Part shown: positions 1,170-26,485 of the stretch, in pieces
Layout: the number at the start of each line of letters is the position of its first letter
How positions within the stretch are numbered: position 1 is the stretch's first letter
From: Fimbriiglobus ruber
GTDB taxonomy: Bacteria > Planctomycetota > Planctomycetia > Gemmatales > Gemmataceae
NCBI RefSeq assembly: GCF_002197845.1
Contig: NZ_NIDE01000017.1
Coordinates: 386,712-418,711 of the forward strand
DNA length: 32,000 nucleotides
Direction: 5' to 3'
Made by a program: the position numbers and the translations under genes
The notes under the pieces: generated by a model
Seen by the model: the letters and a program-made list of their open reading frames with translations, nothing else
Databases searched by the model: none
Told to the model about the DNA's origin: nothing

Positions 1170-1246
1170 CTTGAAATCCTTCGTGTTTTCCGGTGTTTGT
1201 AGGGTTGCAGAGTCCACAACCACCGGAAAACACGAAGGATTTCAAG
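1170..1246 (+). repeat. 26-bp perfect inverted repeat (hairpin) covering the transposase RBS and start codon
   Basis: cttgaaatccttcgtgttttccggtg (1170-1195) and caccggaaaacacgaaggatttcaag (1221-1246) are exact reverse complements with a 25-nt loop. The right arm contains GAAGGA (1234-1239) and the first base of GTG at 1246. Confidence 0.9.
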
Positions 1247-4508: not shown

Positions 4509-5374
4509 GCCTGGTACTCCTCGGCCAGAAACCGCACGACTGCCGTTGCCACGTCCAGATCACACGCGGCCGACAGTGCCCGCCACCCCGGAACGGCGTT
4601 CACCTCGATCACGTACCACTCGCCCCGCGGCCCCGGCAGCAGGTCGACGCCGGCGACCGCCGCGCCGACGGCCCGGGCCGCCCGCACCGCGAGGTCGCGT
4701 TCTGGGACGGCGAGTTCCATTCGCTCGGCCGCGCCGCCCTGGGCGACGTTCGTCCGCCAGTCGTCGCGGGACGTGCGCCGCATGGCCGCGACGACCCGCC
4801 CGCCGATCACGAACGCCCGCGCGTCCCACCCCGGATGGCGGATGAATTGCTGCAAATAGAGGACGCCACCGGTCTGCTCGATCGCCCGGAAGGTCCGCCA
4901 CGCGAGTTCCGGGTCGGAGACACGGACCATCCCCCGCCCTTCCGCCCCAAACAGCGGCTTCACCACCACGTCCCCACCCAGGGCGTCGAATGCGGCGAGA
5001 GCGTCGTCGGCCCGCTGGCAGGCGACGGTCACCGGCACGGGTAGCCCCGCGCGGACGAACCGGACGTTGGCCAGATACTTGTCGACGCAGGCTTCGACCG
5101 CGCGGGGTGGGTTCAGCACGCGGACGCCGTTGGCCGCCGCCGCGTGGAGCAAATCCATGCGGAACACGATCTGTTCGAGCGACCCGGCCGGCATGGTGCG
5201 GACGATCGCCCCGTCGTACCCGGCAAGCGCGTCAGTTGTCCCGGTGACGCCCGGGGCCGCGGCGGACAGCCGGCGGAAATCGAGGACGTCCGCGTGGTGC
5301 CCAAGGTCGGCAGCCGCCCGCGCGAGATCCTGGACGTGCCACCCGGTCCCGCCGGACAAGATCGCGACGCGCAT
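4505..5374 (-). CDS. RimK-family ATP-grasp ligase (alpha-L-glutamate ligase-like, MptN/CofF-like)
   Basis: 289-aa ORF with ATG at 5374. ATP-grasp blocks: DKYLANVRFVRAGLPVP, VVVKPLFGAEGRGM, AGVDLL...WYVIEVNAVPGW. Confidence 0.85.
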   Translation of the reverse strand: MRVAILSGGTGWHVQDLARAAADLGHHADVLDFRRLSAAAPGVTGTTDALAGYDGAIVRTMPAGSLEQIVFRMDLLHAAAANGVRVLNPPRAVEACVDKYLANVRFVRAGLPVPVTVACQRADDALAAFDALGGDVVVKPLFGAEGRGMVRVSDPELAWRTFRAIEQTGGVLYLQQFIRHPGWDARAFVIGGRVVAAMRRTSRDDWRTNVAQGGAAERMELAVPERDLAVRAARAVGAAVAGVDLLPGPRGEWYVIEVNAVPGWRALSAACDLDVATAVVRFLAEEYQA

Positions 5375-8400: not shown

Positions 8401-8445
8401 GACAGAAACCCTCAGTCGCTTGGAAGCCAAACCCGCTTCGGGTTT

Positions 8446-9270
8446 TCATTCGTTGTCTGCCCGCAGCTCGGACAATCGATCGCGGGCTTCGCCTTCCACG
8501 AACTGGCGGACCCGCTGGTCGGCGCACTCGCGCAACCCTTCGGGCGGGCCGTCGTAGAGTACCTGCGACTCGCCCGGTTTGAGGCGGGCCAGCGGGTAGA
8601 GCATGATTACGCGGTCGGCGACTTTCTGCACCGTCCGCATCTCGTGCGTCACCACCAGGCTCGTCACCGGCCGCTTCTGGCGGGTTTGCAGAATCAGTTC
8701 GTTGATCACGTCGGTCATGATCGGGTCGAGCCCGGTCGTCGGCTCGTCGTACAGCATAACGTCCGGCGCGAGGGCGAGAGCCCGGGCCAGCCCGACCCGC
8801 TTCCGCATCCCCCCGGACAACTCGGCCGGCATCTGGTTCTCGACCTTCTTGTACGACAGGCCGACGTCCTCCAGTCGCTCGCGAACCCGCGTGCGGACGG
8901 CTTCGTCCGCGATTCCGCCTTTCGCCCGCAACCCGAAAGCTACGTTGTCGTACACGCTCAGGCTGTCGAACAGGGCCGCCTGTTGGAACAGGAACCCGAC
9001 CCGCAGGCGCATCGCGGTGAGTTCGCGCTCGCGCATCCGGCGGACCGGCTTGCCCTCGAAATAGACCTCGCCGGTCGTGGGCGTCAGCAGGCCGACCACG
9101 AGCTTGAGCGTGACCGACTTGCCGCAGCCGCTCTCGCCGATCAGCACCACGGTCTGGTGCGGGTAAATGTCCAGTGAGACGTTCGACAACACCTGCTGCC
9201 GGCCGAAGCCGATCGACGCGTTCGCCAGCCGGATTACCGGCTCGGGCGGAGTGGCAGCGGGCTCATTCAT
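8446..9270 (-). CDS. mlaF: ABC transporter ATP-binding protein, MlaF-like
   Basis: Walker A GESGCGKS, ABC signature LSGGMRKR, Walker B VMLYDEPTTGLD, H-loop VVTHE. Confidence 0.9.
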   Translation of the reverse strand: MNEPAATPPEPVIRLANASIGFGRQQVLSNVSLDIYPHQTVVLIGESGCGKSVTLKLVVGLLTPTTGEVYFEGKPVRRMRERELTAMRLRVGFLFQQAALFDSLSVYDNVAFGLRAKGGIADEAVRTRVRERLEDVGLSYKKVENQMPAELSGGMRKRVGLARALALAPDVMLYDEPTTGLDPIMTDVINELILQTRQKRPVTSLVVTHEMRTVQKVADRVIMLYPLARLKPGESQVLYDGPPEGLRECADQRVRQFVEGEARDRLSELRADNE

Positions 9271-9299
9271 ACGCGGCTGTTCCCCGACAGACTTTGCGC

Positions 9300-9377
9300 A
9301 AATTTGGAGTGCGGCGCTTGACCGCCGCTTTGGTTTTTAAAAGCAAAAGCGGCGGTCAAGCGCCGCACTCCAAATTT
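9300..9377. repeat. 78-bp palindrome: 32-bp perfect inverted repeat with a 14-nt spacer between mlaE and mlaF
   Basis: aaatttggagtgcggcgcttgaccgccgcttt (9300-9331) has its exact reverse complement at 9346-9377. The spacer is ggtttttaaaagca. Each arm contains an internal GCGGCG-cttgac-CGCCGC hairpin followed by a T-rich run on either strand. Confidence 0.95.
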
Positions 9378-9389
9378 AGACAACAATCG

Positions 9390-10247
9390 TCACGCTACTT
9401 TCGCCCCGGACGCTGGCCAGAACAGGGTGGCGATCGCGGTGGACAGCATGGCCAGGATGAAGTCGATGACCAGGATGGCAACGAAAGAAAGCACGAACCC
9501 TTCCGTGGCTGCCCGGCCCACGCCCTCGGCTCCGGGTCGGCTGTGGAACCCGCGGTGACAACAAATCAGTGCCAACACGCCTCCGAAGATGACCGACTTG
9601 CCCAACCCGACGAGCAAGTCCCACTGTTTGACGTAATTCGCCGTGTGCCGCCAGTAGTGGAACGAGTCGATGTGGTACACCTTCAGGCTAATGAGCGTAC
9701 TCCCGACCACGCCCATCGCGTCGGCCAGAACCGTGAGCAACGGGATGACGAGGAGGCAGCCGAGGAACCGCGGGGCGACGAGGTATTTGACCGGGTCGAC
9801 GCCGAGGCAGGCGAGGGCGTCGATTTGCTCGGTGACGCGCATGGTCGCGAGCTGGGCCGCCATCGCGGTCCCCACCCGGCCGGCCAGCATGACCGCGGCC
9901 AAAACCGGGCCGAGTTCCCGCACGACCGACATGTGGATCACCGCGCCCAGCGACGTGTCCAGGCCGATCATGTGGAACTGGTTGTACGCCTGGACGGCCA
10001 GCACCATGCCGATGAACGTGCCCGTGATCGCGATCACGCCGACCGAACTGACGCCGACTTCGACGCAGACGCGGATGAGTTCGTTGATTTTGAGGTGTCG
10101 GGAGACGACGCCCGAGATGGCCCGGGCGGAGAAGATCGTCCAGTCGCCGAGGCCCGCGAAATTGTCGGCCAGGGCTTCACCGACGTTCCTCAAGAACCCC
10201 GGCTCGGCGGGGGCAATCGGTGCCGGGGCTGCGGATACGCTGGCCAT
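9390..10247 (-). CDS. mlaE: ABC transporter permease, MlaE-like
   Basis: Multi-pass membrane protein with MlaE-type blocks (VVRELGPVLAAVMLAGRVGTAMAAQLATMRVTEQIDAL, DPVKYLVAPR). ATG 10247 (MASVSAAP) is preferred over the track start at 10307. Confidence 0.9.
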   Translation of the reverse strand: MASVSAAPAPIAPAEPGFLRNVGEALADNFAGLGDWTIFSARAISGVVSRHLKINELIRVCVEVGVSSVGVIAITGTFIGMVLAVQAYNQFHMIGLDTSLGAVIHMSVVRELGPVLAAVMLAGRVGTAMAAQLATMRVTEQIDALACLGVDPVKYLVAPRFLGCLLVIPLLTVLADAMGVVGSTLISLKVYHIDSFHYWRHTANYVKQWDLLVGLGKSVIFGGVLALICCHRGFHSRPGAEGVGRAATEGFVLSFVAILVIDFILAMLSTAIATLFWPASGAKVA

Positions 10248-10457
10248 GCGGACAATCCTTGTCGTGTCGACGCGGGAAATGGGAAGCCGGCGTTCGTGCC
10301 GTTGCAATCATTTTGGCGAACGATTCGCCCGCCAATCCGTTCCCGGAACGATTTCCCCACGTTTCAACATCGAACGCCGGCCGGGTCCGGGACGAACCCG
10401 AGACCGCGGCCGGCGGTGGTGAGCAGGCGGGCGAACCATCATATCCGGCACGATCGG

Positions 10458-13893: not shown

Positions 13894-14111
13894 CAAGTCG
13901 CGTCCGGCGTCACGCCAGATTGATGCGGCGGCGCAACTTGTTCTTAGGCGTTCGGCATGTGATAGCGTACCCGCCGACCGATTTCACAACGCCGGGGGCA
14001 AGCCGAAGTAGCTTCATCGGTGGGTAAGCTAATTCCTGCCGAACGCCTTACTACTAATGATCTTTTTCTGCCTGAAAAGACGTGGGCTTTCTTTCTCTCT
14101 GTTCCCTGTGG

Positions 14112-14840
14112 CTAAACCTCTTCGGCGGTCGCGGCCGGCGGCGTCAGCCAGATGTCGCCGAACGGCTCGGGCTGGTCGAGCCGGATGGCCCGGATCTTGA
14201 TCAGTTCGAGGACGGCGAGGAAGAGCCCGATCAACCGCACCTTGGTGTGCGGCGGGGTGAACAGGTCGCGGAAGAGAACCCGCCCGGCTGCCAGGACTTG
14301 GTCGCGGATGAGCGATTCGTACACGTGCTGCGGCGTGTCATCTTCGACCACCGAGGTCGCGTCCGCGGCGTGCGTCTCGCGCATGAGCCGGGCGAACGCA
14401 CTCACAAGATCCCACAACTCGACCGGCCGCACAACCGGGGCACCGGGGCGAACCGGCTCTTCCGGGGTGACGCGCGCGAGGCGTGTTCCCTGTTGCTCGG
14501 CCCGCTGTTCGAGGGCGGCGGCCGCGTCCTTGAAGGCCCGGTATTCGAGTAGTTGCCGGACCAGCTCGCGCCGGGGGTCGGGCGCCTCGTGGTCCGCGGC
14601 CGGGGCGTCCACCGGCAGCAGCGACCGCGCCTTGATCTCCATGAGCGTGGCCGCCATCACCAGGAAGTCCCCGGCGAGTTCCACGTCCAGGGCTTGGGCG
14701 GCCGCCATGAATTCCGTGTACTGGTCCACGAGTTCCGAGATCGCGATGTCGAGGACGTCCACCTCGTTGCGCTTGACCAGGTACAGCAACAGGTCGAGCG
14801 GGCCGTGGAAGGAGTCGAGCGCGACCTGGTAGAGTGTCAT
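14112..14840 (-). CDS. scpA: segregation and condensation protein A (kleisin ScpA)
   Basis: MTLYQVALDSFHGPLDLLLYLVKRNEVDVLDIAISELVDQY...FLVMAATLMEIKARSLLP is the canonical ScpA N-terminus. The C-terminal winged-helix-like part is LFLAVLELIK. Confidence 0.9.
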   Translation of the reverse strand: MTLYQVALDSFHGPLDLLLYLVKRNEVDVLDIAISELVDQYTEFMAAAQALDVELAGDFLVMAATLMEIKARSLLPVDAPAADHEAPDPRRELVRQLLEYRAFKDAAAALEQRAEQQGTRLARVTPEEPVRPGAPVVRPVELWDLVSAFARLMRETHAADATSVVEDDTPQHVYESLIRDQVLAAGRVLFRDLFTPPHTKVRLIGLFLAVLELIKIRAIRLDQPEPFGDIWLTPPAATAEEV

Positions 14841-14865
14841 GGGCCGGCCGGATTGGGCAAAGCGA

Positions 14866-14900
14866 ACGAAAAAAGCCCGCGGGTTTTTCCCCCGCGGGCT
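14866..14900 (-). terminator. rho-independent terminator after kinase/tubulin-like gene 1, 26 nt upstream of the scpA ATG
   Basis: On the minus strand: AGCCCGCGGG-ggaaaaa-CCCGCGGGCT followed by TTTTTTC. The 10-bp perfect GC stem is at 14874-14883 and 14891-14900, and the T-run is the complement of 14868-14873. Confidence 0.8.
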
Positions 14901-14917
14901 GTCGTGTACGGTCCCCG

Positions 14918-17900
14918 TCAGTCGGTGTCAACGTCAACCCACGCCGTCACGTCCAGGCGGGCGTGCGGGTTGATCTGCTGGGCGTCCGGGACGACCCGGT
15001 AGGCGGCCGCCCAGGCCGGCCCGAGTTGGGGGACGGCGGCGAGCGGGACGGCCGAGTACTCGCGGTAAATCACCACCTCGTCCGGCACGGTGGCGGTGGC
15101 CGCCGCGTCGGGCAGCATGCGGGCCGCGAGGTCGCGGACCGGGTCGCCGCCCGCCCCGGTCGGGCTGCCGAACACCGTGACGGCGGACTGCGCCCACGGT
15201 CCCGGGCCGACCAGCGGCGGGGCCGCCCGGTCGAACGCCCGGCGGAGTTCGGCCACGGCCGCGTCCGCCGTCCCGTAGTGCTGGGCGAACATGCCGGCCA
15301 CGTCGGCCTCCCCGAGCCGCGCGTCGAGGTAGGCGCGGGCGGCCGTCCGGACCTCGCGGAGCAGTCCGAGGGGGCCGTCGATCGAGTTCACGCACGCCTG
15401 GTATAGCCCGCCGAACGTCCGCTCCAGCCGCTCTTGCACCTTGGTATCGAGGGCGATCAGGTCGTCGTCGGTCAGCGACCCGATGAACACCTGGGCCGCG
15501 TCTTCCGTCGTCGGGCACCGGGCCGGGAGCAGTTCGCCCGGGCCGCACCCGGGGGCCGGGAACTCGGATTCGAGGGCCAGGTCCCGGCGGCACGCCTCGG
15601 CCCGCTGGCGGTACGCGGACACGTCGCCCAGGATCTCGGTCAACAACTCCTTGAGTTCGCGGTACACCCGCAACACCCCGCGGATCAGCATGAGTTGGTG
15701 CTGCCCGCTCGGGTACTGACCGACCGCGGCCGCGAAGTCGGTCGCGGACACCTTCTTCATGCCCTTCTGGAAGTTCGTGTACGCGAGGATCTGTTCCAGC
15801 GCCGTCGCCGTCCCGGTTTCGAGCGCCGCCGCCTGCTTGTCGAGCTGGACGCGGGCCTTGTTCAGGACGGCGAGCATCTGGCGGGCCGCCTCTTCGGTCC
15901 CGGCGAGCCGGAACGCCGGGGTCTCGACCAGGCCGTGGAACAGGGCGGTGATTTCCGACCGGGCGAGCGCGGTGAGGTCGTCCGCGGTCGCCGCGACGGC
16001 CTCCTCGACGGCGGTGGGCGGGCGGGCGACGACGCCCTGTTGTTTGCCGAAAATGCGCTGCCACTGGTCGACCGCCGCGGTCACCCGGTCGGGGTCCGGG
16101 AGGCGGGCCAGCCACCCCTTCGGGAGGAGGATTTCGGTCGTCCGCGCGACGAGTTCCTGGATCGGCCCGCCGGCCGCCTGGTTGGCGGCGTCGGAGAGGC
16201 GGGTCGTGATCTTGTCCGGCGCCGTCCCCAGCCGGGTCCACTGGTTCGCCACCCACCCCGGGATGACCTGCCGCACGTGGGCCGGGTCGGTCGACACCCA
16301 GTGGTTGAGCAGGACCGGGGCGAGGATTCGCGCGGCCCGCCCGACCACCTCGGCCCGCGGCCACGAGTATCTGGTGAGCCCGCACACCCGCACCGATCCG
16401 GCCGACGTCTCCGGCGTGGGCGGCCGCGTTTGGTCGTCGGCGAGGCGGCCGACCTGTGACGTCGTACTGAGCCGCAGGAATTCCGCCGAGAGGGCCGTCG
16501 GGTCGCGGGTCACGTCCGCGTCGCCCGCTTTCCCGCCGGGGCCGGGCGGGCGGTTCCAGGCGTCGGTCCGCAGGCCCGGGGTCGACCGCCCGGACGGGGT
16601 GGTCCGCGAGATCATCGGCTGTGTGCCGCTCGGGCCGCGGGCGGTATTCGAGAGCGGGCCCGAGTTGCGGACGGTCGCCGCCGTCGCGGTTACGGTCGAC
16701 CCCGGGATGACCGGGGGAGAGTACGCCGACCCGGGGAATAGAAACACGTTGCTGAACGGGCGGTCCGCGTCGCGGACGTTCCCGACGCGCTCGTCGTAAG
16801 ACGCGGCGAACACGGTCTGCGGGCGGGAGTAGTGGTGCAGCTCAGTCAGCGCCGCGTACGTGTTGGCCTGAGACAGCGGGGTCGTGTTGGCGGCCGCCCC
16901 GTCCGGCGGCAGGTGGAACACGCCGACTACGTCGGGGTCGGTGTACCCCATCCGCTTGAGCCGGGAGCGGACGATGTACGCCAGGTCGAGGAACATGCCG
17001 CTCCCGGTCCCCCCGCCGAGACCCGCGACCACGTACACGCGGGGCCGGTTCGTCCGCACGGCCTGGCCGGTTCCGTCCCGGGTCGCGGTGAGCGCGACCG
17101 GGTTCAGGCAGGCGTCGAGTTCGGTCTGGATTTTTTGCACGAGCGCCCGCGAGTGGTCGCACAGCGCGAGCCGGCCGAACCCGCGGATCCCCATCGTGGT
17201 CGGCGTCCGCGTGAGCTTGTACAGCAGTTGCTGGTCGAACCACCCGTCCACCACGTTCCGCCCGTTGGGCCGCGGCTTCAGGTAGTGGGCGGCCCGGTTC
17301 AGTCGGGCGGCGAACACCTCTTCCGGGTCGAGCCCGGCCAACCCGGCCGCGGGGTCGGGCGCGGTCGCGGTCTGAACGTCCGGGTCCGTGTCGATGTACA
17401 GGGTGCGGAACGAGGGCACGGCGTCCGCCGGCCCGAACCTGTCGGCCAGGTGTTTCCGGAACCGCTGGAGGACGCGGAGCCCGGTGTACCCGAGGCCGAG
17501 GATCAGGGTCGGCTGGAGCGTCCCCGGGCCGGTTATCTCGCGCGGGGCGTCCTGCCGCGGGTAGGGCGGGTCGGTGTCGCCCCGCGGGGTCGGCGTCTGG
17601 ACGAGGGCGAACGGGAAATTGTCGGGTCCGACCGACGGCAGCGGGAACTGCGTCGGGGTCATGTTCGCGGGCGGCGCGTCGGCGGCCGGGGGGACGTGCG
17701 CCGGGAAAACTTCGATCGGTCCGGACTTGCTCCCGTCGCCGAGGCCGTGCCGCGAGCCGGGCGGGACGCCCCCGCTGCCCGCGGGGACCACCGTCCGGTC
17801 CGAGCCCGCGTTGCCGGCCCGGATCGCGGCGACCATCGCGGACACGCTCGGGAACCGCTCGTCCGGCTTCTTGGCCAGCGCGCGGGCCAGGGCCGGCCGG

Positions 17901-18631
17901 TCGCCCGGCGGGGACGGCGTCAGGTTCGGGGGCATTTGCAGGTGCTGCATGAGCAACTGCTGCATGCTGTTCCCGTCGAACGGCCGCTGGCCGCACAGCA
18001 GCTCCTGGTACACGCACGCCAGGCTGTACTGGTCGCAGAACCGGGACACGAACCCGTCGAACGTCTCGGGGGCGGCGTACACCGGGGTGATCCCGCCCGT
18101 CACCGACGCGACCATCCCTTCGAGGTCTTTGACCTGCCCGAAGTCCGCCACCTTGACGTGGTTGTAAAGGAGGAACAGGTTCTGGGGCTTGATGTCCAGG
18201 TGCTGGAGCTGGAACTGGTCGTTCATCAGGTCGAGGACTTCGGCCGTCTCGCTCATGTATTGCAGGAGTTCGTCCCGCGGGATGCCCGGGAGCTTCTGCG
18301 CGCGGCAGGCGCGGAACCGGTCCCACAGGTTGCAGTCGGCCAACTCCATGACGATCATGAGCCGGCCGTCGACGATGTCGAACCGGTCGAGGGCGAGCAG
18401 GTACGGGTGGCGGACCTGCTTGACCCGCTTGAGGGCTTTGAGTTCCTGCTCGGCGAACCGGTAGGAGTCCGTTTCCCGATTCCGGATGTCCCCGTGGACG
18501 ATCTTGATCGCCTTGAAAATGCCGCCCGGGGCCTCGGCCTTCCACACCTCGCCGAACCCGCCGCTGCCGAGGCGCTCCATCAGGCGGTACCCGGTGATCG
18601 GCTCGGTCTGGCTCTCGATTCGTGCGGTCAT
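14918..18631 (-). CDS. Ser/Thr protein kinase fused to a tubulin/FtsZ-like GTPase domain and a large helical C-terminal extension (paralog 1)
   Basis: 1237 aa, ATG 18631. Kinase (aa ~15-270): GSGGFGEVW, AIK, HLDIKPQN, DFG, APE. Pro-rich linker (aa ~275-370). Tubulin-like core (aa ~373-635, nt 16727-17515): LGLGYTG, LYIDTDP, GIRGFGR, GGGTGSG (nt 16997-17017), QANTYAAL. Confidence 0.9.
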   Translation of the reverse strand: MTARIESQTEPITGYRLMERLGSGGFGEVWKAEAPGGIFKAIKIVHGDIRNRETDSYRFAEQELKALKRVKQVRHPYLLALDRFDIVDGRLMIVMELADCNLWDRFRACRAQKLPGIPRDELLQYMSETAEVLDLMNDQFQLQHLDIKPQNLFLLYNHVKVADFGQVKDLEGMVASVTGGITPVYAAPETFDGFVSRFCDQYSLACVYQELLCGQRPFDGNSMQQLLMQHLQMPPNLTPSPPGDRPALARALAKKPDERFPSVSAMVAAIRAGNAGSDRTVVPAGSGGVPPGSRHGLGDGSKSGPIEVFPAHVPPAADAPPANMTPTQFPLPSVGPDNFPFALVQTPTPRGDTDPPYPRQDAPREITGPGTLQPTLILGLGYTGLRVLQRFRKHLADRFGPADAVPSFRTLYIDTDPDVQTATAPDPAAGLAGLDPEEVFAARLNRAAHYLKPRPNGRNVVDGWFDQQLLYKLTRTPTTMGIRGFGRLALCDHSRALVQKIQTELDACLNPVALTATRDGTGQAVRTNRPRVYVVAGLGGGTGSGMFLDLAYIVRSRLKRMGYTDPDVVGVFHLPPDGAAANTTPLSQANTYAALTELHHYSRPQTVFAASYDERVGNVRDADRPFSNVFLFPGSAYSPPVIPGSTVTATAATVRNSGPLSNTARGPSGTQPMISRTTPSGRSTPGLRTDAWNRPPGPGGKAGDADVTRDPTALSAEFLRLSTTSQVGRLADDQTRPPTPETSAGSVRVCGLTRYSWPRAEVVGRAARILAPVLLNHWVSTDPAHVRQVIPGWVANQWTRLGTAPDKITTRLSDAANQAAGGPIQELVARTTEILLPKGWLARLPDPDRVTAAVDQWQRIFGKQQGVVARPPTAVEEAVAATADDLTALARSEITALFHGLVETPAFRLAGTEEAARQMLAVLNKARVQLDKQAAALETGTATALEQILAYTNFQKGMKKVSATDFAAAVGQYPSGQHQLMLIRGVLRVYRELKELLTEILGDVSAYRQRAEACRRDLALESEFPAPGCGPGELLPARCPTTEDAAQVFIGSLTDDDLIALDTKVQERLERTFGGLYQACVNSIDGPLGLLREVRTAARAYLDARLGEADVAGMFAQHYGTADAAVAELRRAFDRAAPPLVGPGPWAQSAVTVFGSPTGAGGDPVRDLAARMLPDAAATATVPDEVVIYREYSAVPLAAVPQLGPAWAAAYRVVPDAQQINPHARLDVTAWVDVDTD

Positions 18632-18712
18632 ATCCGTTCCCCGGTGTCCCGGCAGCCTATGTAGTAAAGGAATCCGGCGCCCGGCCCGTCTCGGGCGGCG
18701 CCGGGGCGGACG

Positions 18713-21700
18713 TCATCCGGCGCCCGGAACGGGCCAGGGGAGGTCGGCCCGGGTGTGCGGGTTGTAGTCGGTGGCGAGCTGCTGCTCGTAGGCGTCGCGG
18801 GCGGCGCCGGACACCTGCGCGAGCGACGTCAGCGGAACCCGCGGGCACTCGCGGTAAATCAGAATGTCGTCCGCGAGCGGGGCCGGGATGAATTCGACCC
18901 CGGGGCAGGCGGCGACCGCGATCGCCCGGAACCGGTCCCCGTCCGCCCCGGCGGGGGCGGCCAGGATCGCGGCCTCGGTCGCCCGCCCGCCGACGCCGGT
19001 CAGGTCCGGGGCCGCCTTCGCGAACCCGGCCGCCAGGAGGTCGCGGGCGGGTTGCCCGTTCCCCTGGTAGCGGAGGAACACGGTGGCCGGGTTGGCCTTC
19101 TCGAGCCGGGCGTCCAGGAACGACCGCGCCCCGGTCTCGAGCAGTTTGAGGAAGTCCGGAGCCTTCTCGGCCTTCAGGCAGACGTTCACCAGCCCGCGGC
19201 ACTTGCGGCTGACGTCTTTCTGGAGGGCGAGGTCGAAGGCCAGGATATCTTCGGGCGAGAGTTCGGCCAGCACCCGGTCGGCCGCGTCGTCCAGGGACGT
19301 ACACCCGGACGGGAGGATGAGGGTTCCGGGGCCGACGTCGCCGACGCCGGTCCCGGCGCCCCCGAGCGACTGCCCCATTTCCGCGATCCGGCCGCGGCAG
19401 AAGTTCACGTCCCGCAGGTATTCGGGGATGCTCCCGAGGAGCCCGCGGTACACGGCCAAGGCGGCGGTGTCGTAAATCAGTCGGAGACGTTTTTGGGAGT
19501 AGACCTTGAGCGCGTCGAGAACTTCGCCGGCCGCCCCCGATTTCCGCCCCGTGAAGCCGGCGTTGAGCCCGCCGATCGCCTGCAGAACCCGGCCGAAGGC
19601 CTCGCGGACGTCCCGGTCGCCTTCCTTGCAGAGCGGCTCCAACCCCTCGGCCGTGCGCCGGACGCGTTCGGTGATCTGGTTCAGGGCTTCCTCGGCCCCG
19701 GCCAACCGGTGCTGTGGCTGTTCGATGAACGACACCGCCAGCGCGGCCAAGTTGACCTCGATTTCGCCCGCGAATTTCTTGAACGACTCCTGGACCACGG
19801 TCTCCAGGCTGCCCGGACTCTCGTTCTCGCACGCGGGCTTGCCGACCCATTTGAGGAGTTGGTCCAGCACCTCGCACGCGGTCGCCGCGTCCAGGCGCCC
19901 GCCGCCCGCCGCCCGCGCCCGAAGCGAGTCCACGGCCGCATCGAACACCGCGTCCGGGTCTTCCCGGAGGGCATCACGGGCGACTTGCTCGAACCGCCCG
20001 ATGACGGACGGCAGGTCGAGCTTTTGCTTGGCCCACTGCTCGTCGAGCCACCGCTGGATCGGCTCCCGCAGGTGGGCCGTTTCCTTCCCACCCCACCGCT
20101 GGAGGAGCCGCTGGTTGAACCGGCGGGTGGCGGTCGTCAGCAGTTCCACCCGCGGCCACGAAAACTGGTGCAGGCCGAACAGTTGGACGACCGGGGCGGC
20201 CGCGTCGCCGGTCACCGGCGTGACGGACCGGACGTAATCCGTCACCTTCCCGGCGGTGGTCAACAGTTCGGTGAACACCCCGCGGGCGGCCAACGAGTAG
20301 GCCAGTTTCTGGTCTTTATCCTTGGGTTTGGGAAGCGATACGATCGCGGTTCGGGCGAACGGGCCGTCCCCGTCCACCACCGCGGGCTCGTTCGCGTCGA
20401 ACGTCGTCTTGTACGTGTTCCCGGTCGCGAAGTGGTAGACCTCGGCCAGGGCGGCGAACGTGTTCACGAGCCCGATCGTCTTGGACGGGGCCTTGTCCGC
20501 GGGCGGCGCGAGCAGGACGCCGACGGTTTCCGGCTTCCGGTACCCGACCGCGCGGAGTTCGTGCTTGAGGATGTACGCTAGGTCGAGGAACATGCCGGAC
20601 CCGGTCCCGCCGGCCAGCCCGGCCAGGACGTACGCCCGCGGGCGGTTCGAGCGGACCCCGAGCCCGGTCCCGGCGGCCGCCTTGTCGAGCGGATCGTCCG
20701 TCAGGAACGTTTCGATTTCCTGGCGAATCCGCTGCGCGATCACGCGGTAATTGTCGCACAGGGCAAGTCGGCCGAACGCCCGGACGCCGGCGGCCGGCCC
20801 GGGCGACTTCGGGAGTTGATACAAGAGTCCGGGCGGGAGCCAACTTTCGACCGCCGGGGCCGCACTCTGTTGGAGGTAGTGGGCGGGCCGGTTCAGCCGG
20901 GCCGGAACGACCTCGCGGGCCGCGAACGGGTCCTGGCCCGACGTCGCCGCGGTGATCGCTTCCGGGTCCGTGTCGATGTACAAATACCGGAATGTGGGGA
21001 CGGCGTCCGTGCTGCCGAACCGGTCGCGGACGAACTGCCGGAGCGCCCGCAGGACGATCAGGCCGGTCTGTCCGACCGCGACGACGAGCGACGGGAATAG
21101 GACACCGGGGCCCTCTTTTTCGGGCGGCGCGATGCCGAGACTGCTCATCCGCCCGGTCTGGAAGACTTGCGGGCGCGGCAAGGTCGCCGCCGGCCCGCTG
21201 CCCGGGGTGCCCTGCGGCGTGAGCATCCGGGGCGTGACGAGGCCGGGCGTTCCGTAAGTCCCCCCGGGGCGGCGCGGGTTCGGGGTCGCGACTCCGAACC
21301 CGCCCGGGCTCATGAGCGACCGCTCCAGTGCCGCGGCCGCCACGCCACTCCCGGGACGGGTCGTGGCACGGTCCGGCCCGGGGGGCGTATTCGGCTCGGG
21401 CGAAAGGCCGGGCGGGCGTGGCGTGTCGGCTTTCGGGTCGCGGGTCGTTCCCAGCAGCGGCGTGGCGCCGGACCCCGTTCCCCCGGAGCCGGGTTGCTGG
21501 GTGGTGCCCGCGAATTTGAGGGCGCGAACCATGTCCGCGCACGTTTTCCACCGGTCGTCCGGCTTTTTACTCAGCGACCGCCCGATTACCGGTCGGTCAT
21601 TCTCGTTGAGGGGGCTCAGGTCCGGCGCCCCGTTGAGGTGTTGGAGCAGCAATTGTTTCGTGTTCGCCCCGTTGAAGGGCCGCGTTCCGGTGAGCAACTC

Positions 21701-22324
21701 CTGAAACACGATCGCCAGGCTGTACTGGTCGCTGTACCGGCTGACCCAGCCCTCGAACGTTTCCGGGGCGGCGTACACCGGCGTCACCCCGCCGGTCACC
21801 GTCGCCCGCATCCCCTCGAACGCCTTGGCCAGGCCGAAGTCGGCCACTTTCACGTGGTTGAACGTCAGGAAGATGTTCTGCGGCTTCACGTCCAGGTGTT
21901 GAATCTGGTAGTGGTCGTTCATCAGGTCCAGGGCTTCCGCGACTTCTTCCATGTACGCGATCAGCTCGACCCGCGGGATGCCGATCATGCCCTGCGTGCG
22001 GCACTCGCGGAACCTGTCCCACAGGTTGCGGTCGGCCAACTCCATAACAATGATGAGTTGGCCGTCGACGACGTCGAACCGTTCCAGGGTCAGGATGTAC
22101 GGGTGGCGGATCGACTTGACGCGGTGCAGGGCCTTGAGTTCCTGCTCGGCGGGCCGGCCGTCTTCGTCGGCCGAATCCAGGTCGCCGAACACGAACTTCA
22201 TGGCCTTCAACAGGCCGCCCGGGGCCTCGACCTTCCACACTTCGCCGAACCCGCCACGGCCGAGCCGTTCGAGTAATTTGTACCCTGGGAGGGGTTCTTC
22301 ATGACTGGTCAGGCGTACCGGCAT
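18713..22324 (-). CDS. Ser/Thr protein kinase fused to a tubulin/FtsZ-like GTPase domain and a large helical C-terminal extension (paralog 2)
   Basis: The track ORF starts at 22381. ATG 22324 (MPVRLTSHEEPLPGYKLLERLG) aligns with the paralog start MTARIESQTEPITGYRLMERLG, giving 1203 aa. Kinase: GRGGFGEVW, AMK, HLDVKPQN, DFG, APE. Tubulin-like core (nt ~20330-21103): AVGQTG, LYIDTDP, GVRAFGR, AGGTGSG (nt 20594-20614), VNTFAAL. Confidence 0.9.
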   Translation of the reverse strand: MPVRLTSHEEPLPGYKLLERLGRGGFGEVWKVEAPGGLLKAMKFVFGDLDSADEDGRPAEQELKALHRVKSIRHPYILTLERFDVVDGQLIIVMELADRNLWDRFRECRTQGMIGIPRVELIAYMEEVAEALDLMNDHYQIQHLDVKPQNIFLTFNHVKVADFGLAKAFEGMRATVTGGVTPVYAAPETFEGWVSRYSDQYSLAIVFQELLTGTRPFNGANTKQLLLQHLNGAPDLSPLNENDRPVIGRSLSKKPDDRWKTCADMVRALKFAGTTQQPGSGGTGSGATPLLGTTRDPKADTPRPPGLSPEPNTPPGPDRATTRPGSGVAAAALERSLMSPGGFGVATPNPRRPGGTYGTPGLVTPRMLTPQGTPGSGPAATLPRPQVFQTGRMSSLGIAPPEKEGPGVLFPSLVVAVGQTGLIVLRALRQFVRDRFGSTDAVPTFRYLYIDTDPEAITAATSGQDPFAAREVVPARLNRPAHYLQQSAAPAVESWLPPGLLYQLPKSPGPAAGVRAFGRLALCDNYRVIAQRIRQEIETFLTDDPLDKAAAGTGLGVRSNRPRAYVLAGLAGGTGSGMFLDLAYILKHELRAVGYRKPETVGVLLAPPADKAPSKTIGLVNTFAALAEVYHFATGNTYKTTFDANEPAVVDGDGPFARTAIVSLPKPKDKDQKLAYSLAARGVFTELLTTAGKVTDYVRSVTPVTGDAAAPVVQLFGLHQFSWPRVELLTTATRRFNQRLLQRWGGKETAHLREPIQRWLDEQWAKQKLDLPSVIGRFEQVARDALREDPDAVFDAAVDSLRARAAGGGRLDAATACEVLDQLLKWVGKPACENESPGSLETVVQESFKKFAGEIEVNLAALAVSFIEQPQHRLAGAEEALNQITERVRRTAEGLEPLCKEGDRDVREAFGRVLQAIGGLNAGFTGRKSGAAGEVLDALKVYSQKRLRLIYDTAALAVYRGLLGSIPEYLRDVNFCRGRIAEMGQSLGGAGTGVGDVGPGTLILPSGCTSLDDAADRVLAELSPEDILAFDLALQKDVSRKCRGLVNVCLKAEKAPDFLKLLETGARSFLDARLEKANPATVFLRYQGNGQPARDLLAAGFAKAAPDLTGVGGRATEAAILAAPAGADGDRFRAIAVAACPGVEFIPAPLADDILIYRECPRVPLTSLAQVSGAARDAYEQQLATDYNPHTRADLPWPVPGAG

Positions 22325-22563
22325 CGATACGTTCCGATGGTGATCGCCCACGCGAACGGCGCGGCGATCCGTGGTGAGCATAACTGGGACTACCTACTCT
22401 GTAGCTCATAACGGACGTTTGGCAAAACCGCGGACTTCGCCCCGTTCCTCAAAACCGGTACTTTCTGGAAACAGCTCGCGATTTCGGTTCCGGGCAGAAA
22501 GCGGTGCTGAGGACCACCTCCGGTCGACCGCAACTCGCGCAACAGAATCCGCTTCCGCCGTCT

Positions 22564-22584: not shown

Positions 22585-22949
22585 AGTGCGGGGCACGAAC
22601 GGGATTAGAAAGGCTCACACTTCCCGCTCTCGTGCCCGGATCGAAAATGGCAGGAAGTTACTGCGGTTGGGGACCTCGTGACTCGGAACCTGAATTTTCC
22701 TGCACGAGTGCAGACGACTCCGTGAGACGTTTCCCAGGGTTCGGGCCGTCGCAAATTGGTCGGAGTGCCCCTCTTCACCCACTTACCCAGACGGCGATGT
22801 CTTTTTCGAACGAACGGTTTAAACTGTGTACTTCCGGCGAGCGTGGTAAACGGGCATGACCCGGGCGCGGAGCGCGATTGCGACCGCCGGCGTAAATTTG
22901 TACTCTTTGAGCGTCATGTAACTCGTACGACTGCGTCATGGAAGGCATT

Positions 22950-23654
22950 ATGAGCGAACGGCATCGCACCGGATTATTGGTCAGCGTCCGGTCGGCCGAC
23001 GAGGCGACGACTGCGATCGAGAGCGGGGCCGACCTGATCGACGTGAAAGACCCGACCAAGGGGCCGCTCGGGATCGCCCACCACGAGGCGGTTGCCGGCG
23101 TCGTCGCCGCGGTCGGCGGGAAGGTTCCGGTCAGCGCGGCGCTCGGCGAGTGGTCGCCGTCGGTCCTGACCGAAGCGCACTGGCACCTCGAACTCCCATT
23201 GAATTACGTGAAGTGGGGCCTGGCGGGGTACAAGGGCGGCCCGGGGTGGGGGGAAGACCTCCTCGAAACCAAGCGGCAGGTGCCGGCCGGGATCGAAGTC
23301 GTGGCCGTCGCCTACGCCGACTGGGAGAAGGCGAACTCCGTGCCCCCGATGGAAGTCGCGAAGTTCGCCAAACGGTTCCGCTTCCGCGCGTTCCTGCTAG
23401 ACACGTTCGTCAAGGAAGGAAAATCACTCCTCGACCATATGTCGCCGGCCGAAATCCGTGAGATGGTCGAGAGCCTGCGGCGCGGCATGGTCGCGGTCGC
23501 GGTGGGCGGGTCGCTGAAGGTCGAACAACTGAAACAGCTAAAAGACGTGAAGCCGGACTGGTACGCGGTCCGCGGGTCGGTCTGCGCCGGCGGCAAGCGC
23601 GACGGTGTCCTCGACCCGGTGCGGGTCAAGAAGTGGAAAGAGGCTCTGGCGTAA
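22950..23654 (+). CDS. mfnB: (5-formylfuran-3-yl)methyl phosphate synthase, MfnB family (methanofuran biosynthesis)
   Basis: TGLLVSVRSADEATTAIESGADLIDVKDPTKGPLG matches the MfnB N-terminal pattern (LLVS.....EA..A...GADIIDVK.P..G.LG). ATG 22950 is preceded by GGAAGG. An alternative ATG is at 22938. Confidence 0.8.
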   Translation: MSERHRTGLLVSVRSADEATTAIESGADLIDVKDPTKGPLGIAHHEAVAGVVAAVGGKVPVSAALGEWSPSVLTEAHWHLELPLNYVKWGLAGYKGGPGWGEDLLETKRQVPAGIEVVAVAYADWEKANSVPPMEVAKFAKRFRFRAFLLDTFVKEGKSLLDHMSPAEIREMVESLRRGMVAVAVGGSLKVEQLKQLKDVKPDWYAVRGSVCAGGKRDGVLDPVRVKKWKEALA

Positions 23655-23707
23655 TCGACAACACGCGAGCCGGTCGTTACCGATCCTTCCCGAGGTGTGG
23701 CGTACTC

Positions 23708-26485
23708 GTGAGACTCGTTGCTGTTCTCCTCGTCGCGGGACTCGTGTCGCCGCCTCTCTTCTCCGTGCCGCCCGACGCGACTCCTCCCGCAGATTGGCTC
23801 GTTCACCCGGACGGGTTCAAGGCGAGTGTGCGCGAGGACAAAAGCCGCAAGGAACTCACCCTCGGCAACGGGCTCGCGACCCGCGTGATTCGGCTGGCAC
23901 CGAACGCGGCCACCGTCAGCCTGGATAACCCGATCACCGGCGAAAGCCTGCTCCGGGCAGTGGGACCGGAATCGCGGGTGACGATCGATGGCGTCGAGTA
24001 CGCCGTCGGCGGGTTGTCCGGCCAGCCGGTCAAGAATTACCTTAAGGCCGAATGGCTCGACGCCCTCCGCGACTCACCCGACGCTTACCACTTCAACGGT
24101 TGGAAGGAAGGACCGATCGAGGCCCGCTTCCCGTGGAAGAAACGGACCGAGTGGCTGTCGCGCGACCTGCCGTGGCCCCCGCCGGGGCGGCACGTCGTAC
24201 TCGAATTCGTCCCGCCAACCAAGCGACCGGGTCCACCGGCCGGGCCGGTGTTGTTCGAAGACCACTTCCGCGGACCGCTCAACGAAGCCTGGAAAGTTCA
24301 CGCCAGTCCGGCGCACGCCCGCTCGTCGTTCAGCAACGAGGGGAAGCCCGGCGAGATTCTGGCGGTCCCGGACACGGCGGTTTACGCCGAACGTGGTTGG
24401 CCCAAGGGCGGGGTCGCGGTCGACGTAACGGTCGACACGGGCGACGATACCAGTTCCAACTCGTGGGGTCCCGGGCTGGCTCTGGTTTGCCCGGACCGGG
24501 TCGTTTGTTTCGCCGCCCGGCCCGCGTCGGGGCAGTTCGAGATCTGCGACCCGGACCGCGGGGAACACATCGCTGGGAAGTTCGACCGCGCCAAGCCGGT
24601 CACGCTGCGGGCACGAATCGACGGTGGCCGGGTGACGTTTGAAGCGTCGCAGGACGACGGCAAGACCGTCACGGTCGTCGGCGACGCCCGGCTCGCCCGC
24701 GAGCCGACCGCCATCCGCGTCGGGAAGGTCGGCAAGAGTGGGCGCGGGGTCGATTACCCCAACGCGACGGGCGAGCCGGTGCGCAGCCACGTCCGGTCGG
24801 TCGTGATCCGCGGCCCCGAGCCCGTACAAAAAGCCGCCCCGCGCACCGACCTGCCCGCTGTCGAAATCCACTACGAAATTTACGACGGCCTCCCGCTCTT
24901 CTCGAAGTGGCTGGTCGTGCGCAACGGGACGCAGAAGCCCGTGCGCGTGAACGCCTTTGTGTCCGAAGAACTGCGGCTGACCGAAGTCGAGTCGAACGTC
25001 GAAGCGGCGCCCGACCGCGAGCGGCCCAACCTCTGGGTCGAGACCGATTACGCCTTCGGAGCCATGGACGCGCCGCACGCCGTCAACAAGTCCGTGTTCC
25101 TCACCACCGACCCCGACTACCCCACCCAGGTCCACTACGACCGCCAAACGCCCTGCCTGCTTCGGTGCCGACCACTGGCGGGACCGGACCAGGACGTTGC
25201 GCCGGGCGGCAGCCTGGAATCGTTCCGGACGTTCGAGCTTTTATTGGACTCCACCGAGCGGGAGCGGCGGGGTCTGGCCCAGCGGCGGATGTACCGCACC
25301 CTCGCGCCGTGGACGGCCGAGAACCCGCTGATGTTCCACGTCCGCCGGGCGGACGAACAGACGATCCGGGCGGCGATCGAGCAGGCGTCCGAAGTCGGGT
25401 TCGAGATGCTGATCCTCAGCTTCGGCAGCGGCTTCCACTTTGAATCGACTGATCCGCTGTACCGTAGGAAGTTTCAGGCGCTCGCGGCGGCGGCCCGGGA
25501 GAAAAAGCTCGCCTTGGGCGGGTACTCCCTGCTTGCCTCCCGCGGGGCCGCCGACCCGAAGGACAACACCCAGGGGCCGCCCGCGATGTACGGCGCGATG
25601 CCCTGCCTCGGGTCGAAGTGGGGCCACGCCTACCTCCAACAATTGAAGGGCTTCATCTCCGAAGCGGACCTCGGGGTGCTCGAACACGACGGATCGTACC
25701 CCGGCGACCGGTGCAACAGCCACGCCCACCCCTTCCACCGCGGGCTCGAAGACTCGCAGTGGGTCCAGTGGCGGGCGATCACCGACCTGTACAAGTGGTG
25801 CCGGGCCGAAGGTGTTTACCTGAACATCCCGGACTGGTATTTCCTGGCCGGCGGCAACAAGTGCGGCATGGGCTACTGCGAAACCAACTGGTCGCTACCC
25901 CGGGCCGAGCAGGAACTGATCGAGCGCCAGAACATCTTCGACGGTACCTGGACCAAGACGGGCTCGATGGGTTGGATGTTCGTCCCGCTCACCGAGTACC
26001 AGGGCGGCGGGCCGGCCGCGACGATCGAGCCGCTGGCCAAACACCTCGACCACTACGAGGCCCGGCTCGCCAACCTCCTCGGGGCCGGCGTCCAGGCTTG
26101 CTATCGGGGGCCGCGGCTATATGACACCGACGAGACGAAAGCTCTGGTGAAGAAGTGGGTGGCGTTCTACAAGACGCACCGCGAAGTTCTCGACGGCGAC
26201 CTCATCCACCTGCGGCGGGCGAACGGCCGCGACTGGGACGGCTGGCTCCACGTCAACCCGCAGGGCAAAGAGAAAGGACTGGCGTTCTTCTACAACCCAT
26301 TGTCCGAGCCCATCGAGCGCGAGATCCGCGTCCCGCTCCAATACACCGGGTTGGTCGACAAGGCCCGCGTCTCCATCGACGGCGCGACGCCCACATCCGT
26401 TGCCCTCGACCGGACGGCGACCGCTACCCTGAAGGTGAGAATCCCGGCCCGCGGACGCACCTGGGTGGTCTTTACCACAGAATAA
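23708..26485 (+). CDS. large secreted protein, glycoside-hydrolase-like TIM-barrel C-terminal half (family not determinable by eye)
   Basis: Frame of ORF 23633..26485. GTG 23708 gives a signal-peptide-like start (RLVAVLLVAGLVSPPLFS), whereas ATG 23633 would overlap mfnB by 22 nt. The C-terminal half (EVGFEMLILSFGSG, LEHDGSYPGD, WMFVPLTEYQGGG) resembles sugar-active TIM-barrel enzymes. Confidence 0.75.
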   Translation: MRLVAVLLVAGLVSPPLFSVPPDATPPADWLVHPDGFKASVREDKSRKELTLGNGLATRVIRLAPNAATVSLDNPITGESLLRAVGPESRVTIDGVEYAVGGLSGQPVKNYLKAEWLDALRDSPDAYHFNGWKEGPIEARFPWKKRTEWLSRDLPWPPPGRHVVLEFVPPTKRPGPPAGPVLFEDHFRGPLNEAWKVHASPAHARSSFSNEGKPGEILAVPDTAVYAERGWPKGGVAVDVTVDTGDDTSSNSWGPGLALVCPDRVVCFAARPASGQFEICDPDRGEHIAGKFDRAKPVTLRARIDGGRVTFEASQDDGKTVTVVGDARLAREPTAIRVGKVGKSGRGVDYPNATGEPVRSHVRSVVIRGPEPVQKAAPRTDLPAVEIHYEIYDGLPLFSKWLVVRNGTQKPVRVNAFVSEELRLTEVESNVEAAPDRERPNLWVETDYAFGAMDAPHAVNKSVFLTTDPDYPTQVHYDRQTPCLLRCRPLAGPDQDVAPGGSLESFRTFELLLDSTERERRGLAQRRMYRTLAPWTAENPLMFHVRRADEQTIRAAIEQASEVGFEMLILSFGSGFHFESTDPLYRRKFQALAAAAREKKLALGGYSLLASRGAADPKDNTQGPPAMYGAMPCLGSKWGHAYLQQLKGFISEADLGVLEHDGSYPGDRCNSHAHPFHRGLEDSQWVQWRAITDLYKWCRAEGVYLNIPDWYFLAGGNKCGMGYCETNWSLPRAEQELIERQNIFDGTWTKTGSMGWMFVPLTEYQGGGPAATIEPLAKHLDHYEARLANLLGAGVQACYRGPRLYDTDETKALVKKWVAFYKTHREVLDGDLIHLRRANGRDWDGWLHVNPQGKEKGLAFFYNPLSEPIEREIRVPLQYTGLVDKARVSIDGATPTSVALDRTATATLKVRIPARGRTWVVFTTE

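Follow-up and report, generated by a model that had tools for sequence, protein, structure and literature searches.

Two adjacent genes in a 32,000-nucleotide stretch of the Fimbriiglobus ruber genome (assembly GCF_002197845.1, contig NZ_NIDE01000017.1, positions 386,712 to 418,711 of the forward strand; hereafter the window) encode large proteins in which a Hanks-type Ser/Thr kinase is followed by a tubulin-like domain of the FtsZ-like 1 (FtsZl1) family and by a long helical C-terminal region. We refer to the upstream gene as paralogue A and to the downstream gene as paralogue B. Both are members of a known, annotated and experimentally uncharacterised protein family. Our favored reading, to which we give a probability of about one in two, is that A and B are vertically inherited FtsZl1 paralogues in which a kinase is coupled to GTP-dependent self-assembly, and that they serve a housekeeping role. 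A first-pass annotation of this DNA had reported two minus-strand open reading frames (ORFs) of 1237 and 1203 amino acids carrying kinase and tubulin/FtsZ motifs, and each motif was found where it had been placed. The pair is laid out as follows.

22324 to 18713, minus strand: paralogue A, 1203 aa; kinase, disordered linker, FtsZl1/Tubulin_2 domain and helical C-terminal region
21500 to 22282, minus strand: paralogue A kinase domain, aa 15-275; GRGGFGEVW, AMK, HLDVKPQN, DFG and APE all intact
21098 to 21499, minus strand: paralogue A linker, aa 276-409, 134 aa, Pro/Gly/Thr-rich
20090 to 21097, minus strand: paralogue A FtsZl1 domain, aa 410-745; VGQTG, IDTDP, GVRAFGR, AGGTGSG and VNTFAALAE
18716 to 20089, minus strand: paralogue A C-terminal region, aa 746-1203; helical hairpins and a small terminal alpha/beta domain
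18632 to 18712, minus strand: gap between A and B, 81 nt
18631 to 14918, minus strand: paralogue B, 1237 aa; architecture as in paralogue A
17807 to 18589, minus strand: paralogue B kinase domain, aa 15-275; GSGGFGEVW, AIK, HLDIKPQN, DFG and APE
17519 to 17806, minus strand: paralogue B linker, aa 276-371, 96 aa, Pro/Gly-rich, with the TPxPR motif of clade B
16301 to 17518, minus strand: paralogue B FtsZl1 domain, aa 372-777; GGGTGSG T4 loop
14921 to 16300, minus strand: paralogue B C-terminal region, helical with a terminal alpha/beta domain, collinear with that of A by BLASTP and covered by the family alignments

Domain architecture and predicted fold

The proteins are 100% identical to two F. 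ruber entries that NCBI names "tubulin-like domain-containing protein." The G+C content at third codon positions (GC3) is 0.94 in the ORF from 18631 to 14918 and 0.88 in that from 22324 to 18713, and this marks both as the genuine coding frames in GC-rich DNA that is full of spurious ORFs. The paralogue A frame stays open for 19 codons further upstream (22325-22381), to an ATG at 22381; we took the start at 22324 because it matches the NCBI model and the N-termini of paralogue B and of the orthologues. BLASTP aligned the two proteins collinearly from end to end, with 63% identity over the first ~270 residues, which make up the kinase, and 32% across ~880 further residues. They are indeed diverged tandem paralogues of a single architecture, as first described.

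Both N-terminal domains matched Pfam Pkinase well above its cut-off of 31.7 bits, at 114.6 bits (E 7e-33) in A and 96.7 bits (E 2e-27) in B. The glycine-rich loop (G-loop) lies at aa 22 of both proteins and AIK (B) or AMK (A) at aa 41, followed in B and A, respectively, by HLDIKPQN at aa 144 or HLDVKPQN at aa 143, DFG at aa 163 or 162, and APE at aa 187 or 186. The kinase residues of A are at least 90% conserved in 40 homologues, and the residues present predict catalytically intact, N-terminal, Hanks-type Ser/Thr kinases. Every paralogue examined has HLD instead of HRD, which places these enzymes among the non-RD kinases and outside the RD subclass, in which an Arg ahead of the catalytic Asp brings control by activation-loop phosphorylation. 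The best NCBIfam similarities were to PknB/Stk1 and StpK7, at scores far under the equivalog cut-offs, and the NCBIfam and PADLOC models recognised the kinase domain only.

The linkers measured 96 aa in B and 134 aa in A, close to the first estimate of some 100 to 130 Pro/Gly/Thr-rich residues, and Pro, Gly, Thr, Ser and Ala together account for 0.58 (B) and 0.64 (A) of their residues. Within otherwise variable sequence (alignment columns 535-625), a TP dipeptide, followed by APPE, is kept in at least 80% of the homologues. Among orthologues of A (clade A in the tree described below) the motif reads RLVTPx...TLQRPxxFQTGRMSSLGIAPPE and lies directly N-terminal to the FtsZl1 domain (window ~21140-21260), and in clade B it reads (D/E)TPxPR...APPE (window ~17540-17620). 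The conserved TP common to A and B is a candidate phosphorylation or docking site.

The domain that follows matched Pfam Tubulin_2 (PF13809; cut-off, 27 bits) at 121.4 bits (E 7e-35) in A and 124.3 bits (E 9e-36) in B, so that the hmmscan comparison suggested in the first-pass annotation placed Pkinase and Tubulin_2 far above threshold in both proteins. The match spans profile positions 1-355 of 356 in A and 1-269 of 356 in B, where it stops because an insert of ~85 aa interrupts the domain. Paralogue A lacks this low-complexity, Ser/Thr/Pro/Gly-rich stretch (in B, aa ~632-715, nt ~16487-16738), and clade B orthologues carry inserts of differing length at the same position. A T1-like motif (LGYTG at aa 380 in B, VGQTG at aa 417 in A) is followed by T2-like LYIDTDP (aa 411 in B, aa 448 in A), a T3-like motif (GIRGFGR at aa 481 in B, GVRAFGR at aa 513 in A), the T4 loop (GGGTGSG at aa 539-545, nt 16997-17017, in B; AGGTGSG at aa 571-577, nt 20594-20614, in A) and an H5-like helix (ANTYAAL at aa 589 in B, VNTFAAL at aa 620 in A). 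The 7-mer pattern [SAG]GGTG[SA]G is by itself no proof in sequence of this composition, because the paralogue A linker matches it by chance as SGGTGSG (aa 280-286, nt 21467-21487).

Conservation across the family goes well beyond that 7-mer. An alignment of 22 sequences shows the kinase G-loop, the AxK lysine, HLDxKPxN, DFG and APE preserved throughout clades A and B, a third paralogue (C) and a Pirellulaceae member, and the same holds for T1 GxxG, T2 DTDP, T3 RxxGRLA, T4 GGTG[SG]G (with a few variants) and the H5-like NxxAxLxEL. At the level of sequence, nucleotide-binding loops T1 to T4 are intact. Candidate T7-like acidic residues, FD..E..DxDxPF, lie after the H5-like helix and are conserved in clades A and B.

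Residues 400-1203 of paralogue A were modeled with AlphaFold2 from an input of 41 sequences, with a mean predicted local distance difference test (pLDDT) score of 88.6 and a predicted template modeling (pTM) score of 0.75. A Foldseek search of the PDB with this model gave 165 matches at E<=1e-3, and the best 50 of these were all chains of gamma-tubulin, alpha/beta-tubulin, FtsZ, CetZ (including CetZ2) or OdinTubulin from Odinarchaeota. The top matches had E values of ~1e-5 and a probability of 1.00 over 325-370 aligned columns, at 12-16% identity and with template modeling (TM) scores, normalised to the target, of 0.33-0.52. The central region is assigned a predicted tubulin/FtsZ fold because both the Tubulin_2 hidden Markov model (HMM) matches and the structure matches are significant. 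The alignments cover almost the whole length of the FtsZ chains, and the model suggests that counterparts of the FtsZ elements past helix H5 exist. Pfam, the model and Foldseek thus bear out the fusion of a Hanks-type kinase to a tubulin-superfamily domain, and the structural comparison that had been recommended agrees with it.

The C-terminal part of A is built, according to the secondary structure of the model, from helices of 30-63 residues arranged in hairpins, and it ends in a small conserved alpha/beta domain (YRE...PH.R.D..W). A separate AlphaFold2 model of the last 459 residues (pLDDT, 85.7) found no PDB fold match at E<=1e-3 with Foldseek, the best being a generic helical bundle at E 0.23. 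Matches to dynein stalk, pore-forming toxins, JetC and chemoreceptors were discarded as insignificant similarities among long-helix bundles. Neither phmmer with the single post-kinase sequence nor a profile search turned up anything meaningful among PDB sequences. This helical region of ~460 aa is long and family-specific, without a solved relative.

Family membership, descent and gene neighborhood

Pfam Tubulin_2 corresponds to the FtsZl1 family of Makarova and Koonin (2010; PMC2875224), the branch of the FtsZ/tubulin superfamily that has diverged furthest. An N-terminal protein kinase was noted in four planctomycete members in that paper, and the planctomycete fusion was restated by Santana-Molina et al. 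in 2023 (PMC9871819) and by Odelgard et al. in 2024 (PMC11032199); according to the latter, no domain accompanies the exclusively cytoplasmic Ser/Thr kinases of Planctomycetota more often than the tubulin-like one. FtsZl1 also appears among the division and cytoskeleton candidates named in the Gemmata genome paper (PMC4672568). The architecture is therefore not new, contrary to what the first-pass annotation had implied, because it was described in 2010, restated in 2023 and 2024, and annotated by NCBI. What is added here is the ancient tandem paralogy of A and B, a third paralogue, the conservation of kinase and GTP-loop residues, a confident model and the weakness of the link to scpA, the gene directly downstream of B.

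Nothing essential separates A and B from the family as described. They share its Pfam family and GGGTG(S/T)G T4 loop, its layout of an FtsZ-like domain followed by a long helical/coiled-coil region and a helical C-terminal domain, and the N-terminal kinase of the four reported planctomycete proteins. The tubulin/FtsZ alignment of the A model extends past H5, unlike the 2010 description. A typical, though not obligatory, FtsZl1 operon encodes a kinase together with vWA and OmpA-like proteins and a divergent P-loop GTPase, and in other phyla the kinase genes are separate (PMC2875224). The vWA, divergent P-loop GTPase and OmpA-like partners are absent from the F. ruber locus, where Pfam detected none of them among the window genes.

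A phmmer search with the post-linker part of A against 50%-identity cluster representatives found 2963 homologues at E<=1e-3 and 468 at E<=1e-30. Local phmmer comparisons among the best 150 clusters recovered the kinase, FtsZl1 and C-terminal regions in all 95 representatives of at least 1000 aa, and the shorter representatives look like fragments. In a neighbor-joining tree (787 columns, 100 bootstraps), the upstream gene of the window falls in clade A (bootstrap, 66%) and the downstream gene in clade B (88%); neither clade includes paralogue C, the Pirellulaceae protein or the FtsZl1 proteins of other phyla that lack a kinase. A Zavarzinella orthologue is found inside each clade and the internal topologies are congruent, so the A/B duplication is older than the Gemmataceae radiation and both copies have descended vertically. 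Vertical inheritance of FtsZl1 inside the Planctomycetes had already been noted in 2010 (PMC2875224). The G+C content is 0.69-0.73 across both genes (window 14001-22000) and 0.62-0.66 in the flanks; this probably reflects a Pro/Gly/Ala-rich composition and extreme GC3 and not a foreign origin, which is disfavored because the phylogeny is vertical.

The survey of distribution and synteny that the first-pass annotation had called for, made here with tblastn across 74 loci, found both paralogues kept across the Gemmataceae. Fimbriiglobus, Limnoglobus and Zavarzinella preserve the order of a divergent 4-HFC-P synthase gene, A and B. The pair has come apart in Gemmata, Urbifossiella and Frigoriglobus, where A remains by the synthase gene and B lies elsewhere, and both paralogues are retained even there. 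The synthase gene is the most conserved neighbor of A across the Gemmataceae. In the Urbifossiella lineage (locus L002, 13697-16546; locus L063, 12715-15486), the B orthologue is preceded by a WD40 gene and followed by genes for a DUF697 membrane protein and an MMR_HSR1/dynamin-N-like GTPase. That GTPase is reminiscent of the GTPases that accompany FtsZl1 in operons elsewhere among the phyla. The DUF697 and GTPase genes were rejected as general partners of B, as they occur in the Urbifossiella lineage only.

The third Gemmataceae paralogue with Pkinase and Tubulin_2 domains, C, occurs in Limnoglobus roseus (locus L065, 9017-12502) and in Fimbriiglobus metagenome-assembled genomes (MAGs; loci L066-L068). 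It is deeper branching, with ~25% identity to A in the tail, the kinase motif HLDVKPKN and an altered T4 loop (TGG-GSG or SGGT-SG), and it sits among unrelated genes. No conserved partner was found near paralogue C or near unlinked B genes, whose unrelated neighbors include genes for arginine decarboxylase, a glycosyltransferase, a PQQ propeller protein and, on the other strand at a distance of ~5 kb, BatA/VWA_2. The arrangement A, B, (ScpA) was also seen, at 47-50% identity, in MAGs labeled Alcaligenaceae and Bacteroidales (loci L021, L023 and L059), most likely through mis-binning rather than horizontal transfer.

The F. ruber pair is flanked in the window by the following features.

14874 to 14900, minus strand: terminator-like hairpin, 10-bp stem with 9 G-C pairs, then TTTTTCG
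14112 to 14840, minus strand: scpA, downstream of and co-directional with the pair; Pfam SMC_ScpA, E 6e-31
22938 to 23654, plus strand: 4-HFC-P synthase (MfnB-like), divergent from A; Pfam 4HFCP_synth, E 5e-58
23633 to 26485, plus strand: 950-aa ORF, GC3 0.85, sharing 22 nt with the 3' end of the 4-HFC-P synthase gene
6883 to 10307, minus strand: Mla-type lipid-transport set of MlaD-domain protein (515 aa), ABC ATPase and MlaE permease, then an M50 peptidase
3627 to 4508 and 4505 to 5374, minus strand: CitG-like and RimK-type ATP-grasp genes
1171 to 2775, plus strand: DDE transposase (DDE_Tnp_1_4), ~12 kb from the pair

The 81-nt gap between A and B showed no terminator-like site, and the two genes are therefore probably co-transcribed. 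The hairpin downstream, AGCCCGCGGG-GGAAAAA-CCCGCGGGCT then TTTTTCG, begins 18 nt past the B stop codon and lies 34 nt ahead of the start of scpA, and because this intrinsic terminator lies between them, scpA is probably not co-transcribed with the pair. Across the evaluable loci, scpA lies directly downstream of B in ~11 of ~22, including Zavarzinella formosa with a 33-nt gap, and it is not adjacent to B in Limnoglobus roseus, Gemmata, Urbifossiella or Frigoriglobus. The link to scpA is probably one of ancestral synteny, not of an operon, and it is dispensable.

The remaining window genes are housekeeping or planctomycete-typical. They include those for a CAP-domain protein, a class II DAHP synthase, a Kelch protein, NAMPT and a DUF1559 protein with the N-terminal methylation motif that is a planctomycete hallmark. 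The MfnB-like, CitG-like and RimK-type genes resemble the methanofuran/tetrahydromethanopterin (H4MPT) cofactor-biosynthesis genes of planctomycete C1 metabolism. The 950-aa ORF had no Pfam match and was not found by tblastn in the related loci. Apart from the DDE transposase, no mobile-element or defense gene was seen near the pair, and scanning the window with Rfam and for tRNA genes returned nothing.

A proposed mechanism and its alternatives

The gene context of the pair is cytoplasmic and stand-alone. Beyond domain identity and residue conservation, we infer each step of the mechanism as follows. The FtsZl1 domain would bind GTP and, with the long helical region, would drive nucleotide-dependent self-association, probably as an A/B hetero-oligomer; we propose the latter because both paralogues are always retained. 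Assembly would juxtapose the tethered kinase domains, which may phosphorylate the flexible linker in trans, at the conserved TP site, and/or partner proteins, and assembly state and phospho-signaling would thereby be coupled. The fused kinase would stand in for the separate kinase gene of FtsZl1 operons in other phyla. The role would be constitutive and cell-biological, for example in the organization of the membrane, the envelope or the cell cycle in a bacterium without FtsZ, and such a role is favored over mobile defense because the context is conserved and housekeeping.

Known systems offer partial parallels to this scheme. BtubA and BtubB of Prosthecobacter, like alpha- and beta-tubulin, are paired paralogous tubulins that form heterodimers. 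A and B resemble them in being adjacent, co-directional and anciently diverged, in both having nucleotide-binding loops and in being co-retained across a lineage. They differ in that they are unrelated to BtubA/B in sequence beyond the superfamily and are unlinked in Gemmata-type genomes. PknA/PknB-type Hanks kinases phosphorylate FtsZ and share a complete eukaryotic-like catalytic core with A and B, whereas the kinase of A and B is tethered to the tubulin-like domain, is non-RD (HLD) and lacks a transmembrane segment and PASTA domains. Kinase phosphorylation of FtsZ is also mentioned by Makarova and Koonin (PMC2875224).

Several points weigh against a self-assembling kinase module. In canonical members of the superfamily, an acidic residue of the T7 loop activates GTP hydrolysis in the polymer, and the candidate T7-like acidic residues of A and B are missing from paralogue C, from the Pirellulaceae protein and from the kinase-less proteins in our alignment. 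Pfam Tubulin (PF00091) stayed under its threshold of 33 bits, at 15.1 and 21.6 bits, with a match to the T4 region only; likewise, hhalign of the family profile against E. coli FtsZ aligned the T4 loop alone, at 40% probability. The TM-scores normalised to FtsZ are just 0.45-0.52. Makarova and Koonin found no sequence alignment past H5, did not recognise T6-H7 or the C-terminal domain, and allow that FtsZl1 proteins may not form filaments (PMC2875224). The hetero-oligomer is deduced solely from the co-retention of the genes, and the window context holds no partner that would indicate a specific process. Finally, the literature that we searched yielded no experimental work on FtsZl1 or on planctomycete tubulin-like kinases, nor any FtsZl1 structure, biochemistry or phenotype; the first-pass annotation had likewise known of no characterised member of this fusion. 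The P. limnophila essential-gene paper and those of its supplements that we searched do not mention tubulin.

Much of this would fit a GTP-switch signaling kinase, in which the FtsZl1 domain is a non-polymerizing nucleotide sensor, a monomer or fixed dimer, that toggles the tethered kinase and builds no cytoskeleton. A T7 catalytic loop that is not conserved across the family, a T6-H7 segment and C-terminal domain unrecognisable by sequence, a profile comparison confined to the T4 loop and the doubt over filaments all lean that way. So do the stand-alone position of the genes, with no structural partners seen nearby, and the hugely expanded Ser/Thr kinase repertoires of planctomycetes, which carry many sensor domains and of which the tubulin-like one is the commonest cytoplasmic type (PMC11032199). 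However, the predicted fold aligns across essentially full-length FtsZ chains, conservation beyond the nucleotide pocket and the ~460-aa helical domain exceed the needs of a simple switch, and two co-retained paralogues suggest assembly. We regard the switch as unlikely on this balance, although it survives best among the alternatives to a self-assembly-coupled kinase.

A more doubtful proposal is that the pair is an immunity-like conflict system, in which an invader, once sensed, would cause the tubulin-like domain to multimerise, with the kinase as effector or signal relay. Kaur, Burroughs, Iyer and Aravind (2020) read neighborhoods that combine tubulin with coiled-coil, vWA, DO-GTPase and GAP1-N2 components as nucleoside triphosphate-dependent conflict systems; their predicted systems include fusions of tubulin with a C-terminal coiled-coil or alpha-helical domain, as in A and B, sometimes as two paralogous genes in Firmicutes, and GAP1-N2 systems occur in planctomycetes (PMC7159879). 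Such systems link DO-GTPase, GAP1, FNIII-repeat and vWA genes to variable effectors. At the F. ruber locus, by contrast, the Pfam-detectable components are absent, with no gene for a vWA protein, a DO-GTPase or another P-loop GTPase within ~14 kb upstream and 9 kb downstream in the window (the libraries used have no GAP1 model). The kinases do resemble the PADLOC defense kinases mad6 (E 1e-37 and 1e-43) and PD-T4-6, but these matches are restricted to the generic kinase domain and do not touch the tubulin or C-terminal parts, and we rejected them as evidence of defense. Similarly, the neighboring DUF697 and dynamin-like GTPase genes that would suit a conflict system are confined to the Urbifossiella lineage. 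Variable effector domains are not present and the kinase is fused instead, and single-copy orthologues, congruent trees and conserved housekeeping synteny are neither patchy nor hypervariable.

The first-pass annotation had named the pair a candidate cytoskeletal, division or segregation system, pointing to scpA next to it and to the lack of FtsZ in the lineage. In its direct form, A and B would replace FtsZ as a division or chromosome-segregation cytoskeleton working with the ScpA/SMC condensin in FtsZ-less Planctomycetia. The host is indeed a planctomycete, of the Gemmataceae, and Planctomycetota are reported to be without FtsZ (PMC11032199). A and B also share with FtsZ, tubulin, CetZ and OdinTubulin the predicted fold, T1, T2 and T4 in canonical order (GxxG, DTDP and GGTGSG, of which DTDP is comparable to the NTD of FtsZ) and the H5-like helix, and the presence of scpA directly downstream in F. 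ruber and in ~11 related loci suggests an ancestral arrangement. They differ from FtsZ and tubulin in their large inserts between T2 and T3, in the added helical region and the N-terminal kinase, in the sub-threshold PF00091 score, in a T7 motif that is not family-wide and in the absence, from either protein, of a Pfam match to FtsZ_C or Tubulin_C. No dcw-cluster context was seen either, the neighbors being genes for DAHP synthase, ScpA and 4-HFC-P synthase. As a functional argument the scpA adjacency does not stand, since in F. ruber a strong terminator hairpin stands between B and scpA, and since Limnoglobus roseus, about half of the evaluable tandem loci and the genera in which B has relocated do not keep the adjacency. 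FtsZl1 is also present in many phyla that contain FtsZ (PMC2875224), and a division role was not reported in the planctomycete division literature that we searched. With T7 not family-wide and the wider family also read as a conflict system (PMC7159879), the division or segregation role was overstated and is speculation; we consider direct substitution for FtsZ improbable. That the motif string is coincidental or the genes decaying pseudogenes is refuted: a 7-mer can arise in Gly/Ser/Thr-rich sequence, as the second match in the A linker illustrates, but HMM E-values of 1e-35, a tubulin-fold model of high confidence, intact ORFs with GC3 of 0.88-0.94 and hundreds of full-length homologues with conserved catalytic residues stand against it.

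The division, budding and elaborate membranes of the FtsZ-less Planctomycetes are still poorly explained, and FtsZl1 is the least understood branch of the superfamily. If the self-assembly-coupled reading is true, the tethering of a kinase to a GTPase of tubulin fold would offer a compact model of the coupling between phosphorylation and nucleotide-driven assembly. The idea of such coupling has been available since 2010, and the window offers not a new kind of object but a sharper experimental target, with co-retained paralogues that are testable as a heteromer, conserved catalytic residues, a confident model and a link to scpA that now appears weak. A bolder version, which we see as a long shot, is that A and B form an obligate heteropolymer like that of alpha- and beta-tubulin, whose GTP-dependent assembly the tethered kinases control by phosphorylating the linker TP, and that this is the missing cytoskeletal element for FtsZ-independent budding or division, or for nucleoid segregation with its ancestral link to scpA, in Gemmataceae. 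Such a self-regulated heteropolymer would, if true, be of high interest.

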